Program-made: the position numbers and the translations under genes
DNA from: a phage
NCBI GenBank assembly: GCA_024683775.1
Contig: GCA_024683775.1_4106.1
DNA: 64,000 nucleotides
Direction: 5' to 3' (one strand)
In this document: piece by piece, positions 2,711 through 58,861 of the stretch
Layout of the letters: each line of letters starts with the position of its first letter
Position numbering within the stretch: the stretch's first letter is position 1
The notes under the pieces: generated by a model
What the model saw: only the letters and a program-made list of their open reading frames with translations
Databases searched by the model: none
What the model was told of the DNA's origin: nothing

Positions 2711-2941
2711 ATGACTAAGCGAATTGTTTTACTTAACGAAAGCAGTACTACACAACTACTTAACGCCGTGCATTATGATATTGAAACGAGCGTTAATCTT
2801 ATCAGTACTGTCGTACTGTTGGACACTGGAAAGGTCGCCAATGATAAAGCGATTGCAGGTATACTAACGGATCTTGAGCCTGGTAGCAGTGCACCAATAA
2901 CGTTAAATGGTAAAGTGTTTAATATTTTACTCACTGATTAA
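2711..2941 (+). CDS. hypothetical protein (76 aa)
   Basis: ORF; SD-like GGGG before ATG; intrinsic terminator immediately downstream. Confidence 0.6.
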   Translation: MTKRIVLLNESSTTQLLNAVHYDIETSVNLISTVVLLDTGKVANDKAIAGILTDLEPGSSAPITLNGKVFNILLTD

Positions 2942-2947
2942 GTACAT

Positions 2948-2970
2948 AGCCCACCTGGTGGGCTTTTTTG
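2948..2970 (+). terminator. rho-independent terminator
   Basis: GC-rich hairpin AGCCCACC/GGTGGGCT followed by a T-run. Confidence 0.7.
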
Positions 2971-3174
2971 TTTTTGTAGTATCGTAGTACTGAGATACTT
3001 TGAAAATAGTTTTAAGAAAGTAGTTGACATTACCGCAGAAAAGCGTAGAATGTATTACATCAAGACGGGGAGCACTAAGTAGACCGCCAGTAAGTCGAAC
3101 GAAAAACTGGACACGTCGAGAAAACTTTGATACACTAATAAACGTAAACTAAACTTTAATTGAGGATTTATAAA

Positions 3175-3657
3175 ATGGCTAATGTAAAATCATTCATCAA
3201 AGCACTGGTAGCAAATGAAACTAACGTCGCGGCTGAGATCCTGGCTGAACTGGATAACGATACCATGAAAGCGGTACGCAATAATTTTAACATCGCGTAC
3301 AGTACTGCGAAAGAACTACAAGCAAATAAAGCGGCAGAAATTGAAGCGGCAAAGGCGGCCCGTGAAGCAGAACTACAAGCAACAATCGAAAGTATTCAGG
3401 CGGCAGTAGTTGGATTGGATCTGGAAGTAGTTACAGAGATGGCACAAAAAGCCCTGGCGGTTAAGTATGGGGAAGACAAGCCAGAAGTAAAAGCCAAAAA
3501 ATGGATTCAGGAACGCGTAGCGGTAGTACTGGACAACGGGGAAGAATATCTGATTCCGGTGCGTGGTAACTGCATTGCGGTAGTACTGGATGCGATTAAC
3601 TCCAGTGGTATGACTCGCGAGGAATGGATCAAAGCTCATCGCAAAGTTGAAGCATAA
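3175..3657 (+). CDS. hypothetical protein (160 aa, Ala/Glu-rich helical N-terminal half)
   Basis: ORF; SD TGAGGA upstream of ATG; trimmed from track ORF 3160. Confidence 0.7.
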   Translation: MANVKSFIKALVANETNVAAEILAELDNDTMKAVRNNFNIAYSTAKELQANKAAEIEAAKAAREAELQATIESIQAAVVGLDLEVVTEMAQKALAVKYGEDKPEVKAKKWIQERVAVVLDNGEEYLIPVRGNCIAVVLDAINSSGMTREEWIKAHRKVEA

Positions 3658-3678
3658 CAATTAAAGTACTGAATCACT

Positions 3679-3706
3679 AGCCCACTGTATAAGTGGGCTT
3701 TTTTGT
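3679..3706 (+). terminator. rho-independent terminator
   Basis: Hairpin AGCCCACT-GTATAA-GTGGGCT followed by a T-run. Confidence 0.75.
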
Positions 3707-3785
3707 GTTTATCGTTTACCATGCCACCAGCACCGCCTAGAAACGATTCTAACGCATTAAACTGATTATCTGATGCATTGCCCTA

Positions 3786-3793
3786 GCTGGTGG
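3786..3793 (+). other. Chi octamer GCTGGTGG
   Basis: Exact match read in sequence; paired with an inverted copy at 3724-3731. Confidence 0.8.
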
Positions 3794-3941
3794 CGTTAAG
3801 GCTGTAAGAACGCGATTGAGAGCGTTTAAAGTATTTTGCAAAAAGTAATAAAAAGTACTTGCACGATTAAGAGATTAGCGTATAATGTTTTACATCGAGA
3901 GGGGGAAACGGTTCTCCTTCCAAATCAAAGGAATTAAAACA

Positions 3942-55395: not shown

Positions 55396-55425
55396 GACAT
55401 ACCATAAGTTTATGATATAATGTAA

Positions 55426-55456
55426 GGTGACAGCAGAATATGTTGTCACCTTTTTT
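55426..55456 (+). terminator. rho-independent terminator
   Basis: Hairpin GGTGACA...TGTCACC followed by TTTTTT. Confidence 0.7.
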
Positions 55457-55986
55457 AATCCTGAAAGGTTCCATATGGAAATGATTAAAGCCTAATCCAC
55501 TCGAAAAGTAGAGGGTAGATGAGTAGTCCTTTCAGTACGAACAGCAAATGAAACCCGTTAGATGATGGCATAGTTTGAACCACTCACGGCAATGCGGCTG
55601 TATAAAGAACTCCAATAGGATAAAGAGAGTTCCTCGATAGACATATAAGGATCGCACCTTACCAATTATCTAAGGGAGATTTCATGAGAAATTTGCGGTC
55701 GTAATTTATACAATATAGTTGCGTCCAAAATTCGTGAAATCAAATACAAGTACTGGTCATATGGTATTTGTATTATGTGTCGGGATGTTTAAGACCGACG
55801 ACCGTTGCTACAAGAACCGCGATAGAGAGAAACAGAGCAACCCGCTTTCGCCTCGTAAGAGAATTCGTGATATGAACTATGTGAAGGCCACCAGCGTCAA
55901 ACTTTTTGTTCTTTCCCCTGCGGGGGGATGAAATATGCTCAAGCAAACCCCGTCAATATTAATTAAAACAAATCATAGTACTTTCG

Positions 55987-56015
55987 TTGAATTAGACATG
56001 CGAAGCGTGTATAAT
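55987..56015 (+). promoter_or_regulatory. sigma70-like promoter (TTGAAT-17-TATAAT)
   Basis: Hexamers read directly upstream of CDS 56074. Confidence 0.55.
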
Positions 56016-56073
56016 TCGACTGGTGTTGATGAAGTCAACGCCATGTACAGTCATTGATGTTTCCATAGGAATA

Positions 56074-56619
56074 ATGATGTCATTTATTAAAAAATCTAAA
56101 AGCGTCACTTATAAAACACTAGAATTTGTTGATTCAGACAATCAGAACCAAGACCAAGAGAATTTTACTGGTTTTGTTGTGATTAAAGAAAAGGGATGTA
56201 TTTCGTACATCAAAGAGTTGCAGTGCGGTTTTGAATTAACTTCCATTAAGTTATTTCCAACCAAGAAGCCTACAATTCTTAAAGCTCGTTATGGGAACTA
56301 CTACGAAGAGCGTTATAGTAATAATCTAATCAGTGCGAAAGCACATATCGTCAATGGAGAACTAGAAGGAGAATATAGAAAATTCAACCCACAAGGAAAA
56401 TGTGTTTGGGTTAAATACTTCAATTCAGGAAATGATGTAACATCAGAAATTATTGAGTTTTTAGGTTTAACATGTACCCTTGAAACTCTTCATGATTACA
56501 AATTTAATACTGAAGAAGAGTTTAATCTGATGATGCGTTATGGATCACATTTTAAATTTTTATATGAATACAACATTGACAGTAGTACTTTTGATGACAT
56601 AGTACTTAACTGTCTATAA
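56074..56619 (+). CDS. hypothetical protein (181 aa)
   Basis: ORF; SD ATAGGAATA upstream; trimmed from track ORF 56023. Confidence 0.6.
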   Translation: MMSFIKKSKSVTYKTLEFVDSDNQNQDQENFTGFVVIKEKGCISYIKELQCGFELTSIKLFPTKKPTILKARYGNYYEERYSNNLISAKAHIVNGELEGEYRKFNPQGKCVWVKYFNSGNDVTSEIIEFLGLTCTLETLHDYKFNTEEEFNLMMRYGSHFKFLYEYNIDSSTFDDIVLNCL

Positions 56620-56635
56620 TCAAAGGAAATTATGT

Positions 56636-57160
56636 ATGTCGAAGAAGGATGCTTCGAAGAAAAAACAATCAGTACATTTCAGTACTGGAAAAGATAACTG
56701 GACTACTCCAAAGGATTTCTTTGAAGATTTGGATGAACTCTGGGAATTTACACTAGATGCAGCGTGTGTCAAAGAAACTGCATTGTGTGATAAGTTCTTT
56801 ACACCAGAAGACAATTCACTTGAACAGGACTGGGGAAACAATATCGTGTGGCTCAACCCACCGTACAGTGATTTGAAAACGTGGTTATCTAAGGCAGTTG
56901 ATGCATATAACAAAGGTGCTACAGTACTGATTCTCGTACCATCAAGAACTGATACTATAGCCTTTCAGGATTATGCTGCGAAAGTTTGTGATTGTATTTG
57001 TTTTATAAAAGGTCGCTTAAAGTTCGGTATCCCTGAAGAACCAGATAAAAAGACGGACAGTGCACCATTCCCTAGTTGTTTAATAGTACTGGATAAGTAT
57101 TTGACTCCAGCTAAAATCAACTATCTTAAATCTATTGGTCAGGTGATGAAGAACATATGA
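56636..57160 (+). CDS. DNA N6-adenine methyltransferase, phage Dam family (174 aa)
   Basis: Motifs WTTPKDFF, FTLDAAC and NPPY in the arrangement typical of the small phage Dam family; SD AAAGGAAA upstream. Confidence 0.75.
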   Translation: MSKKDASKKKQSVHFSTGKDNWTTPKDFFEDLDELWEFTLDAACVKETALCDKFFTPEDNSLEQDWGNNIVWLNPPYSDLKTWLSKAVDAYNKGATVLILVPSRTDTIAFQDYAAKVCDCICFIKGRLKFGIPEEPDKKTDSAPFPSCLIVLDKYLTPAKINYLKSIGQVMKNI

Positions 57161-57690
57161 AAGAAACATGTATACTATCATTCATGAGATGTAACCCAAT
57201 ACATCACGGACATGGCTTAGTGTTTGAAAAAGCTCAAGCACTACAAGAACAGTACAATGCTGATTTGAAAATATTCCTTAGTACCAGTACTGATGCCGTA
57301 AAAAATCCATTACCTCCTGAACTGAAAATGTACTATACAGAAGGATTTTACCCATCTGTACAAGAAAATATCTATACAGAAGATAATCTGTTTGATATAA
57401 TGAGAGAACTGGATGGAAAGTACTTAGATGTTCTTTTCATATGTGGTTCAGACAGACTTGAACCATTCCAAAAAACGCTTGACACGTACAATGGGAAGTT
57501 ATATAATTTTTGTTCAATCAAGGCAGTTCAAGCTGGAATTGACCGAAATGTAAGTCGCTACAGTTCCACACAGATGCGTGAGTTTGCCAAGAATGAAGAT
57601 TTTAATAGCTTCAGTACTTTTCTACCTGGTAATGATGATGCACTGAAAACTAAACTATTTGAAGATGTAATAAAATACATGAGGAAATAA
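57157..57690 (+). CDS. HxGH-motif nucleotidyltransferase, NMN/NaMN adenylyltransferase-like (177 aa)
   Basis: N-terminal CNPIHHGH (nucleotidyltransferase HxGH) and C-terminal SSTQMR (ISSTxxR-like); ATGA overlap with the methyltransferase gene. Confidence 0.55.
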   Translation: MKETCILSFMRCNPIHHGHGLVFEKAQALQEQYNADLKIFLSTSTDAVKNPLPPELKMYYTEGFYPSVQENIYTEDNLFDIMRELDGKYLDVLFICGSDRLEPFQKTLDTYNGKLYNFCSIKAVQAGIDRNVSRYSSTQMREFAKNEDFNSFSTFLPGNDDALKTKLFEDVIKYMRK

Positions 57691-57692
57691 CT

Positions 57693-57986
57693 ATGTCAGT
57701 ACTGTTTAAAACTAACCCAGTACTTTGGGATCAGAATGAGGATTCGGGTTTCCGTTCAATCCATGTTGAATTCAAAGGTAATACGGTGGTTGCAATCATT
57801 GCAAACAAAACTTTAGGAAACTGGACTGCACAAGTTGTTCCTATGGGATATTCTTATACATCTGATGAAGTTGCGTTTCTGGCTGAATTATATAGTCAAA
57901 CACCATTCATCATCAATGTTCTAGAGCGTAGTGATAAGTTAACACATGACGAAGTAATTGACTTCCTGGCGAACTTACATGTCTGA
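57693..57986 (+). CDS. hypothetical protein (97 aa)
   Basis: ORF 3 nt after previous stop. Confidence 0.6.
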   Translation: MSVLFKTNPVLWDQNEDSGFRSIHVEFKGNTVVAIIANKTLGNWTAQVVPMGYSYTSDEVAFLAELYSQTPFIINVLERSDKLTHDEVIDFLANLHV

Positions 57987-58266
57987 TGATTCGAATCTAA
58001 CAGGTTATTTTTTGCAAGAATCAATGATCAAATTCAGTGAACATTTTCCAGTACTAGATGGTGTGGAGATGTGGCATGTAAAACCACTCTTCCACACTTT
58101 CAGTAAAGAGCACAAAATGTTATTGACTGAGGCTTGTAAATCGAATAAAATATGCCAAATCAAGATTGGTGTAAATGTCTACAAAGGATTAGTCATCTTT
58201 TTTGACAACAACAGCAACTACTTTTATATTGTTAAGGAGCATTACGTTGACAAATACAAATACTAA
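57979..58266 (+). CDS. hypothetical protein (95 aa)
   Basis: ORF overlapping previous stop; trimmed from TTG-start track ORF 57958. Confidence 0.55.
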   Translation: MSDDSNLTGYFLQESMIKFSEHFPVLDGVEMWHVKPLFHTFSKEHKMLLTEACKSNKICQIKIGVNVYKGLVIFFDNNSNYFYIVKEHYVDKYKY

Positions 58267-58861
58267 TACATACTTTCGTTATCTTCGCCTAGGGCTTTCC
58301 CTACGCCCAATCCGTGGTAAGTGTGATTCACTTGCTGATTTGGATTATGCATATGCATTACATTGTGATGGTGTTCAATATGTATTAGGTGACTATGGCA
58401 CATTCGAAGAATCCAATGACAGTTCAGAAATTATTGCTGGTGTTGCTAACCTTAACAACATTGCCAATAGTTCTCGTCATGAAATCGTTCTTGAAATTCA
58501 GAACTTCATTGAGAAAAATACTGGCAAGCGTACATGGTCATATGTCGGTACTGATGCACAAATGTCAATCGCATTTGGTAACGAAGATGGTTATGTAGCA
58601 CAACTTATTATGGATTTTGAATCAGAAGAGAAGTTCCAAGAATACAAAGAAAAAATCATCCAATCCTTATTGCAAATGGGTATTCCTGAAGATCGTATGC
58701 CTGAAATTCAAAGCATTGATGAGTTTGTTCTTATCCCATCTGATGAAAAATATGATGCGATGTTCACAGCACTGAACATTCCTGGTGTAGTGGTTGAGTA
58801 CTTCGATGATGGTGATAGTGACATTTACCTAGATCTCGACGACGATGATGACGATGAATAA
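58202..58861 (+). CDS. hypothetical acidic protein (up to 219 aa; start uncertain)
   Basis: Long ORF with poly-Asp C-terminus; track start is TTG 65 nt inside previous gene; no in-frame ATG until far downstream. Confidence 0.5.
   Translation: MTTTATTFILLRSITLTNTNTNTYFRYLRLGLSLRPIRGKCDSLADLDYAYALHCDGVQYVLGDYGTFEESNDSSEIIAGVANLNNIANSSRHEIVLEIQNFIEKNTGKRTWSYVGTDAQMSIAFGNEDGYVAQLIMDFESEEKFQEYKEKIIQSLLQMGIPEDRMPEIQSIDEFVLIPSDEKYDAMFTALNIPGVVVEYFDDGDSDIYLDLDDDDDDE

Follow-up and report, generated by a model that had tools for sequence, protein, structure and literature searches.

The 64,000-nucleotide stretch of phage DNA analyzed in the present study (contig GCA_024683775.1_4106.1 of NCBI GenBank assembly GCA_024683775.1; hereafter, the window) carries two adjoining open reading frames (ORFs), designated here as ORF-A and ORF-B (Table 1), the first of which is assigned to the phage Dam family of N6-adenine DNA methyltransferases and the second to the nucleotidyltransferases (NTases) with a HIGH signature. 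The reading that we favor, with a probability of approximately 0.65, is that these are two independent, individually ordinary enzymes, and that ORF-B is an orphan NTase with an acceptor other than nicotinamide mononucleotide (NMN). This reading is built on the reality of both genes, their families, the fold of ORF-B, the conservation of its motifs, its distribution among phages, the absence of NAD-salvage partners, and the presence of canonical NMN adenylyltransferases (NMNATs) alongside the gene pair in related phages, each of which was directly observed.

The region between positions 55500 and 58500 shares 99.5% identity with Escherichia phage WPEC5, 98.8% with vB_Ec-M-J, and approximately 85% with PBECO4. 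These three phages are jumbo myoviruses of the Rak2-like genus Asteriusvirus, with genomes of 350-385 kb, and the two genes adjoin each other in a tightly packed, apparently co-transcribed block of a jumbo coliphage of this type. ORF-A and ORF-B are real genes: many phage genomes contain them in conserved form (39-99% identity), and they match the Pfam Dam family and phrog_3041, respectively. The ORF coordinates, the NPPY, HHGH, and SSTQMR motifs, and the ATGA overlap reported in a preliminary description of this DNA were all recovered in the sequence. The pair is already known, being deposited and annotated in genomes up to 99.5% identical over the region, and near-identical GenBank genomes label the two genes 'DNA methyltransferase' and 'cytidyltransferase'.

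Regarding ORF-B, profile comparisons placed the protein in phrog_3041 (3.6e-52) and phrog_395 (5.9e-22), both named 'cytidyltransferase', and the Pfam model CTP_transf_like gave a sub-threshold score (E 0.05, 14.3 versus 21 bits). An exhaustive HMMER search recovered 2358 representative family proteins at E<=1e-3, many of them 300-1400 amino acids long with the NTase domain at one end. By tblastn, the family was found in 538 phage records, 436 of which are from cyanophages (366 Synechococcus, 50 'Cyanophage', and 20 Prochlorococcus), with Rak2-like jumbo phages and PA5oct-like Pseudomonas phages among the other carriers; one record (fHe-Yen9-03) names the family 'Cyanophage-encoded cytidylyltransferase, T4 GC0190'. 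Cyanophage members possess a C-terminal extension of approximately 170 amino acids or are multidomain proteins of 600-1400 amino acids, whereas ORF-B is a minimal stand-alone domain. Their partner, through coupling or fusion, is DUF6267, whereas ORF-B is instead preceded by the Dam gene. In the complete genome of TH47 (352,450 bp), a phage of the same genus in which both ORFs are 97% identical at the amino acid level, ORF-B is the sole member of its family.

An alignment of 48 diverse members defined the family signature as GRxNPxHxGH, LSxSxDxxKNPL, GSDR, YNG..YNF, and SxTxMR, with H19 and R100 invariant and R11, G18, N50, K57, G97, D99, Y111, N112, S136, R141, and F152 nearly invariant. ORF-B has every one of these motifs, although the first reads MR where GR is usual, and the signature is preserved across Rak2-like, PA5oct-like, and cyanophage orthologues. 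No activity has been demonstrated for any member of this widespread 'cytitidyltransferase' family, which is confined to phages and to which ORF-B belongs by sequence. Two peptides of one cyanophage orthologue were identified in the proteome of virions, and the authors called the function of this protein unclear (PMC9146016); cyanophage papers otherwise equate the family with TagD (PMC9146016, PMC7238727). Our literature search found no paper that treats the 'cytitidyltransferase' family name, DUF5824, or DUF6267.

The AlphaFold2 model of ORF-B, which was built with the family alignment, had a mean predicted local distance difference test score (pLDDT) of 97.2. Its top structural neighbors were NMNATs, with phosphopantetheine adenylyltransferase (PPAT) being almost as close. 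In the viral structure library BFVD, every strong match was a phage 'cytitidyltransferase' (E 7e-18 to 6e-15 for ranks 2-16), including proteins of P-TIM68, S-RIM2, S-PM2, P-HM2, and Serratia phage BF with a query-normalized template modeling (TM) score of approximately 0.9, and the first annotated viral NMNAT appeared at rank 49 with a TM score of 0.63. At the sequence level, ORF-B alone matched nothing in the PDB, and it took the family profile to reach NMNAT and PPAT, at E values of approximately 1e-4: the NMNAT MJ0541 at 1.2e-4 over residues 6-67 only, and Helicobacter pylori PPAT at 1.5e-4 over residues 2-148, which was the longest alignment obtained with a solved family. In an hhalign comparison, the ORF-B family and the NadM-Nudix NMNAT of its own phage lineage (CBB_113) were aligned with a probability of 82.5%, but the alignment was limited to the first 58 residues; BLASTP detected no similarity between ORF-B and that enzyme. 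The NCBIfam models for nicotinic acid mononucleotide (NaMN) adenylyltransferase (NaMNAT) scored far below their cut-offs (NF000840, 17.3 versus 150; TIGR00482, 16.5 versus 112.45 bits), and, against the hidden Markov model (HMM) of the ORF-B family, Escherichia coli NadR, CoaD, and NadD reached 14.6 bits (over 30 residues), 9.6 bits, and 4.9 bits, respectively.

The KNPL motif of ORF-B aligns with KNPF of NadM and archaeal NMNAT and with K-N/K-P-M-F of PPAT, and the alignments with MJ0541, NadM-Nudix, and NadR end at approximately residues 58-67, with no homology to the NMN-binding middle region being detected in ORF-B. The GSDR/YNG region that follows aligns only with RGLR...DFEYE of PPAT and not with NMNATs. 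In comparison with the NadM-type and archaeal NMNATs (PDB 2qjt and 1f9a; NadM-Nudix of KVP40 and CBB_113), ORF-B is alike over approximately the first 60 residues only; it has GSDR/YNG in place of the NMN-binding middle and carries neither a Nudix nor a kinase domain. The HxGH and ISSTxxR-type motifs from which the preliminary description derived an NMNAT-like enzyme are present in ORF-B, but are common to the whole HIGH-NTase superfamily; that assignment stands at the level of fold and superfamily, and is not supported at the level of NMNAT itself, given the HMM scores and an alignment confined to the N-terminal 58-62 residues. Judging from sequence and model together, ORF-B is a HIGH-signature NTase, the nucleoside triphosphate (NTP)-binding half of which appears most like those of NadM, archaeal NMNAT, and PPAT, and the acceptor half of which appears to be specific to its family.

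The superfamily suggests how the protein may work. The GRxNPxHxGH, KNPL, and SxTxxR elements would bind an NTP, most likely ATP, which is the more probable donor because all near neighbors of ORF-B are adenylyltransferases. The phosphate of the acceptor would then attack the alpha-phosphate of the NTP, releasing pyrophosphate and yielding a nucleoside monophosphate-phospho-acceptor product. The acceptor pocket, formed by GSDR and YNG, would be family-specific and different from that of NMN/NaMN adenylyltransferases, and the acceptor would be something other than NMN, probably a nucleotide-like or nucleic-acid-linked phosphate in phage DNA or RNA metabolism.

The preliminary description had also linked ORF-B to NAD salvage and the countering of NAD-depleting host defenses, and this link was not supported. 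Three related jumbo phages, GAP32, PHA46, and phiKp_21, carry both the Dam/NTase pair (GAP32_068/069 in GAP32) and, approximately 22-25 kb away, a separate canonical module of NadM-Nudix and nicotinamide phosphoribosyltransferase (Nampt). The module is represented in CBB, where only the module was looked at, by CBB_113 (NadM-Nudix) and CBB_115 (Nampt), and its orthologues occur in GAP32, PHA46, RaK2, K64-1, phiKp_21, EJP2, and others; the CBB genome paper names these NAD genes (PMC5259590). In PBECO4, the slot between the dCMP deaminase and Sir2 genes (66-70 kb of the record) is occupied by genes for a protease and an HslV-family peptidase, with no NadM-Nudix or Nampt, whereas Sir2 is retained together with a stand-alone Nudix hydrolase; Asteriusvirus has lost the NARP2-type module of its relatives.

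Phages are known to reconstitute NAD+ by NARP1 (Adps and Namat) and NARP2 (Nampt and Nmnat), the latter of which needs Nampt (bioRxiv 10.1101/2024.02.11.579819), and by NARP3, which consists of PnuC and a NadR-like enzyme and needs both PnuC and a kinase domain (PMC13464706). ORF-B has the superfamily fold of the Nmnat/NadR adenylyltransferase domains of these routes, but the second component of any of them was undetectable in the complete TH47 genome, and the relatives carry their own complete NARP2-type pair. In tblastn searches of TH47, CBB Nampt gave no match at E<=10 and CBB NadM-Nudix gave noise only; E. coli PnuC, NadR, NadD, and CoaD and the CBB AAA_28 kinase gave nothing at E<=1; and E. 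coli Prs, used as a proxy for Adps, gave noise only. Sir2 was found in the same genome at 4.5e-64. The statement in the preliminary description that no NadV-like gene is present in the window was correct. Since the partners were undetected in TH47, no NARP route can be built around ORF-B.

We regard it as unlikely that ORF-B acts alone as an NMN/NaMN adenylyltransferase that uses host-derived NMN to refill NAD+ against NAD-depleting defenses. Beyond the HxGH and SxTxxR motifs and the N-terminal alignment with NadM, this possibility draws on the weak NCBIfam matches, which are to NaMNAT models, on one distant family member labeled NaMNAT by JGI, and on the retention of Sir2 and Nudix in an Asteriusvirus lineage that has neither NadM-Nudix nor Nampt. 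However, the NMNAT HMM scores are approximately 10-fold under their cut-offs, the acceptor-binding half aligns with no NMNAT, PPAT is nearly as close in structure, and three of the relatives have a canonical NMNAT in addition to their member of the family. NAD-cleaving defenses produce ADP-ribose and nicotinamide, which NMNAT alone is unable to recycle, and no linked Nampt, PnuC, RNK kinase, or Adps was detected anywhere in TH47. Moreover, the main home of the family is T4-like cyanophages, in which its fixed partner is DUF6267 and not an NAD gene.

Several points weigh against an acceptor other than NMN and against the independence of the two enzymes. NMNATs head the structural neighbors of the ORF-B model, and, among its motifs, GRxxPxHxGH and KNPx most resemble those of the NadM/NadR/archaeal NMNAT clade, as reflected in the hhalign probability of 82.5%, such that NMN may be the acceptor after all. 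The absence of partner genes was read from tblastn searches of a relative, TH47, and not from the full genome of this phage, and divergent analogues would escape such searches. Asteriusvirus has no canonical NMNAT, yet has Sir2 and Nudix, and ORF-B could in principle fill the missing step. The adjacency of the Dam and NTase genes and their tight junction persist down to 39-41% identity, which is compatible with a functional link. A nucleic-acid-linked acceptor is proposed purely through guilt by association.

The annotation of the family as a cytidylyltransferase leads to another reading, namely, that ORF-B is a CTP- or NTP-dependent NTase of sugar, polyol, or phosphonate phosphates that supplies nucleoside diphosphate (NDP)-sugars or -polyols for surface or DNA glycosylation; we consider this to be improbable. 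In addition to the PHROG and GenBank names and the equation with TagD, longer family members exceed the CTP_transf_like threshold, and a survey of jumbo phages proposed NDP-sugar synthesis by HIGH NTases of cyanophages and beyond (PMC7824862). Membership of the accessions of that survey in the ORF-B family could not be confirmed, ORF-B itself scores under the threshold, and this Pfam model describes the whole superfamily, from the name of which the 'cytidylyl' label is inherited. The GCT/CCT-type cytidylyltransferases (TagD, CCT, and HldC) are neither reached through CTP_transf_like nor the closest fold of ORF-B, and no glycosyltransferase, sugar kinase, or epimerase adjoins the NTase gene in any context inspected.

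The neighborhoods of the family offer a different lead. In cyanomyoviruses, a DUF6267 gene precedes the NTase gene, which it overlaps in S-WAM1 (DUF6267 at 2712-3905 of the locus); phrog_455 spans DUF6267 and the NTase as a fusion, and DUF6267 was also found nearby on two metagenomic contigs. Other fusions of the family involve a Zeta-toxin/AAA_33/PNK-like P-loop kinase, ParB_N, and DUF5824, other members carry an intein, and the neighbors of the family include DnaB, RNaseH/5'-3' exonuclease, PolB, a PD-(D/E)XK nuclease, and primase-helicase/MazG. Around seven distant members, the only recurrent partners were DUF6267 and general replication genes. By association, these partners hint at a role for the family in the metabolism of nucleotides or nucleic acids and not in cofactor salvage.

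DUF6267 has at least 8000 metagenomic homologues and the invariant motifs KWDG, QGDLL, GIVFHT, and EGFVAIK, with a helical insert of approximately 130 amino acids between them, and KWDG, QGDLL, and EGFVAIK recall motifs I, III, and IV of ligases and capping enzymes. Single-sequence and profile searches of the PDB and a relaxed Pfam search for this likeness were all negative, the AlphaFold2 model of DUF6267 reached a pLDDT of only 72 with the C-terminal EGFVAIK region disordered, and hhalign comparisons with the RNA ligase and DNA ligase of PBECO4 were not significant, with EGFVAIK being aligned to EGFVCIL of the ligase. No search confirmed the resemblance, and DUF6267 as a ligase-like partner is a lead and not evidence. 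We see only a slim chance that the ORF-B family represents one half of an undescribed phage system for processing nucleotide or nucleic-acid ends, and not a small-molecule cofactor enzyme, with the NTase having been re-partnered with Dam in Rak2-like phages. This might connect the family to the sequence signature of Rak2-like phages described below, in which AGTACT is approximately 8-fold enriched and GCGC and 22 palindromic hexamers are absent.

It is very unlikely that ORF-B is a CoaD-like PPAT that raises coenzyme A (CoA) synthesis, because the resemblance, which consists of the alignment of the family profile with H. pylori PPAT, a similar size (approximately 160-177 amino acids), and the GenBank annotation in Turkey3/5, is marginal in score, lies mostly in generic NTP-binding motifs, and does not extend to the signature residues (GRxNP/GSDR/YNG in the family versus GTFDP/RGLR/DFEYE in PPAT), and no other CoA-pathway gene is linked to ORF-B.

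Regarding ORF-A, the Pfam family PF05869 (Dam) matched with an E value of 2.5e-32 and 112.3 bits against a threshold of 28.1, over positions 7-153 of the 169-position profile, and phrog_111 'DNA methyltransferase' matched at 1.1e-56; the assignment to the Dam-family N6-adenine methyltransferases in the preliminary description was thus well founded. The NCBIfam equivalog model TIGR01712 scored 92.5 bits, just below its cut-off of 97.05, and ORF-A is best described as a clear member of PF05869, but not as a certified TIGR01712 equivalog. In common with the phage Dam enzymes of PF05869, the protein has NPPY and the N-terminal W-x-TP and LDAAC motifs (DNWTTP and LDAAC in ORF-A, before NPPY). Its orthologues in Rak2-like jumbo phages are 41-99% identical, and NPPY is kept in those of PBECO4, PHA46, and GAP32. 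In the Alcyoneusvirus phiKp_21, the Dam orthologue (locus 781-1299), which is otherwise 68% identical, has NCPY in place of NPPY, and this enzyme may be altered or weakened.

Relatives of ORF-A are present in 2200 phage records, with the nearest outside the Rak2-like clade being enzymes of Staphylococcus, Lactococcus, and Parabacteroides phages (45-49% identity), and the Dam genes of Stx phages and the T1-like JMPW2 show approximately 30% identity. The Dam enzymes of T1 and Stx phage 933W are GATC-specific and Hia5/Hin1523 are non-specific, and, since PF05869 contains both types, the target site of ORF-A is not inferable by homology. An assignment of specificity from individual homologues was also rejected, because the closest outside the clade are uncharacterized and the characterized ones are only approximately 30% identical.

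EcoRI and HindIII are both blocked by N6-methyladenine within their sites, of which the TH47 genome has 157 and 68, respectively. The DNA of phage fEgEco12, which is 98.7% identical to the window at the locus, was cut normally by EcoRI, HindIII, ClaI, and NsiI, and by ten restriction enzymes in total (PMC13070987). The normal digestion in fEgEco12, together with this number of EcoRI and HindIII sites in a related genome, makes blanket adenine methylation by ORF-A improbable and favors a site-specific enzyme. Genome-wide, TH47 has 0.51 of the expected number of GATC sites, a moderate depletion, and neither ORF-A nor ORF-B contains a copy. From its sequence, ORF-A would most likely be an orphan S-adenosylmethionine-dependent N6-adenine methyltransferase that acts on replicating phage DNA at a defined short site, GATC or another, and this methylation may protect against restriction, complementing the extreme avoidance of palindromic sites by the genome.

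The ATGA overlap of the two genes is real, though not distinctive. According to crude gene calls, 77 of 158 consecutive plus-strand junctions in the window overlap, and between 25 and 29 of the 158 are of the 4-nucleotide ATGA type; the overlap was therefore rejected as a sign of a functional pair. Orthologous junctions vary between a 4-nucleotide overlap (PBECO4 and phiKp_21), an 8-nucleotide overlap (PHA46), and a 3-nucleotide gap (GAP32). The adjacency is kept from 99% to approximately 40% identity, but only inside one clade with long-range synteny, and no Dam gene was found within approximately 3-4 kb of the NTase gene in S-WAM1, Pseudomonas phage Ettore, or the metagenomic jumbo-phage contigs of the seven distant members. 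Because the adjacency is limited to one syntenic clade with no Dam gene nearby elsewhere, we interpret the pairing as an apparently inherited gene order and not as a module.

The opposite interpretation, in which ORF-A and ORF-B form one DNA-modification unit with the NTase activating a group or cofactor that is used together with the methylase, possibly in connection with AGTACT, is highly improbable in our view. The tight adjacency extends over four genera of Rak2-like phages, all carriers of the pair show an 8-11-fold enrichment of AGTACT and no GCGC, neither of which is found in two phages with the NTase and without Dam, members of the family are fused to ParB_N, and Dam-like domains are fused in phages to domains resembling 3'-phosphoadenosine-5'-phosphosulfate (PAPS) reductase. 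However, all carriers belong to the one syntenic clade, and the correlation amounts to a single phylogenetic event; tight overlaps are the local norm, the other contexts of the family that were inspected have no Dam gene near the NTase gene, and the normal cutting by ten restriction enzymes is contrary to a bulky or global modification. To our knowledge, no known chemistry ties a HIGH NTase to N6-adenine methylation.

AGTACT occurs 249 times in the window versus 21 expected (11.6-fold) and 917 times in the 352-kb TH47 genome versus 119 expected (7.7-fold), and is the sole strongly enriched palindrome. Copies are denser in intergenic (8.6/kb) than in coding (3.1/kb) DNA, are present in all three reading frames, are often extended to CAGTACTG, and are often clustered, with 35 spacings under 30 bp. 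The hexamer is also 8-11-fold enriched in PBECO4, GAP32, PHA46, CBB, and phiKp_21, whereas cyanophage S-WAM1 and Pseudomonas phage Ettore show no such enrichment, and a literature search returned no mention of it in jumbo phages. A hairpin inside ORF-A, CAGTACTG-AAAT-GTACTG at 56670-56687 (minus strand), was scored as terminator-like and is made of two AGTACT-type sites, and hence close copies can form inverted repeats. GCGC is missing from the window (0 versus 54 expected), from TH47 (0 versus 329), and from every Rak2-like locus examined, and 22 of the 64 palindromic hexamers have no copy in the 352 kb of TH47, in which each is expected 10-35 times.

Table 1. Features of the ORF-A/ORF-B locus, in positions of the window.
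Feature	Position	Strand	Remarks
Terminator-like hairpin	55424-55452		Upstream of the gene block
Promoter-like site	55987-56015		Upstream of the gene block
Upstream gene	56023-56619	+	phrog_16210 (function not assigned), 1.8e-81; likely co-transcribed
ORF-A	56636-57160	+	174 amino acids; predicted phage Dam-family (PF05869) N6-adenine DNA methyltransferase
NPPY catalytic motif of ORF-A	56855-56866	+	Residues 74-77
ATGA start/stop overlap of ORF-A and ORF-B	57157-57160	+	
ORF-B	57157-57690	+	177 amino acids; predicted stand-alone HIGH-signature (HxGH ... SxTxxR) alpha/beta nucleotidyltransferase, PHROG 3041/395
HxGH (HHGH) NTP-binding motif of ORF-B	57202-57213	+	Residues 16-19; inside G/M-R-x-N-P-x-H-x-G-H
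KNPL motif of ORF-B	57301-57312	+	Residues 49-52; N50 nearly invariant
GSDR and YNG motifs of ORF-B	57445-57495	+	Residues 97-100 and 111-113; family-specific, presumed acceptor-binding half
SSTQMR (SxTxxR, ISSTxxR-like) motif of ORF-B	57562-57579	+	Residues 136-141; S136 and R141 nearly invariant
Downstream gene	57693-57986	+	phrog_14956 (function not assigned), 2.4e-43
Near-consensus sigma-70 sites	58202-58230 and 55987-56015		

At the junction of the two genes, the ATG start codon of ORF-B (57157-57159) shares its ATGA with the TGA stop codon of ORF-A (57158-57160). The genes on either side have counterparts in relatives: a gene of similar size, matched by size and position only, lies upstream of the pair in PBECO4, PHA46, GAP32, and phiKp_21, and a small gene, matched by position only, lies downstream. 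The upstream gene, ORF-A, ORF-B, and the next genes probably form a single transcription unit because a promoter-like site precedes them and no terminator-like site follows until 58315-58337. A perfect 12/12 sigma-70 consensus (TTGACA, 17 nucleotides, TATAAT) is present at 57479-57507 (plus strand) within ORF-B, over the YNG codons, and could drive the downstream small genes.

When the 3 kb around the pair were used as a query, each related genome gave matches at three places, suggesting that families of paralogous small genes lie nearby. Farther to the left, a comparison with vB_Ec-M-J places the window from 1 to approximately 17500 within a direct terminal repeat of approximately 21.5 kb, and the part between approximately 17500 and 46000 is a long series of very small (60-110 amino acids) same-strand genes, many with 4-nucleotide overlaps.

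The labels carried by orthologues in databases are inconsistent and apparently propagated, and 'cytitidyltransferase' is a typographical error. ORF-B orthologues are annotated as 'ribonucleotide reductase A' in Ecwhy_1, fEgEco12, S-MbCM25, and S-H35 (for comparison, metaG-MbCM1 bears 'NrdB ribonucleotide reductase A subunit'), and as 'phosphopantetheine adenylyltransferase' in Turkey3/5, and the ORF-A orthologue of fEgEco12 is named 'type I restriction-modification system methyltransferase subunit'. No test supports any of the labels 'cytidyltransferase', 'ribonucleotide reductase A', and 'phosphopantetheine adenylyltransferase' for the ORF-B orthologues.

The outcome of the present study is mainly corrective in that ORF-B should not be listed among the phage NMNATs or the anti-defense enzymes of the NARP type. 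With more than 2300 representative clusters and carriers among hundreds of T4-like cyanophage genomes, the interest that remains in this family is its substrate, and a single enzyme assay on one of its members would provide an annotation for thousands of marine virome genes.

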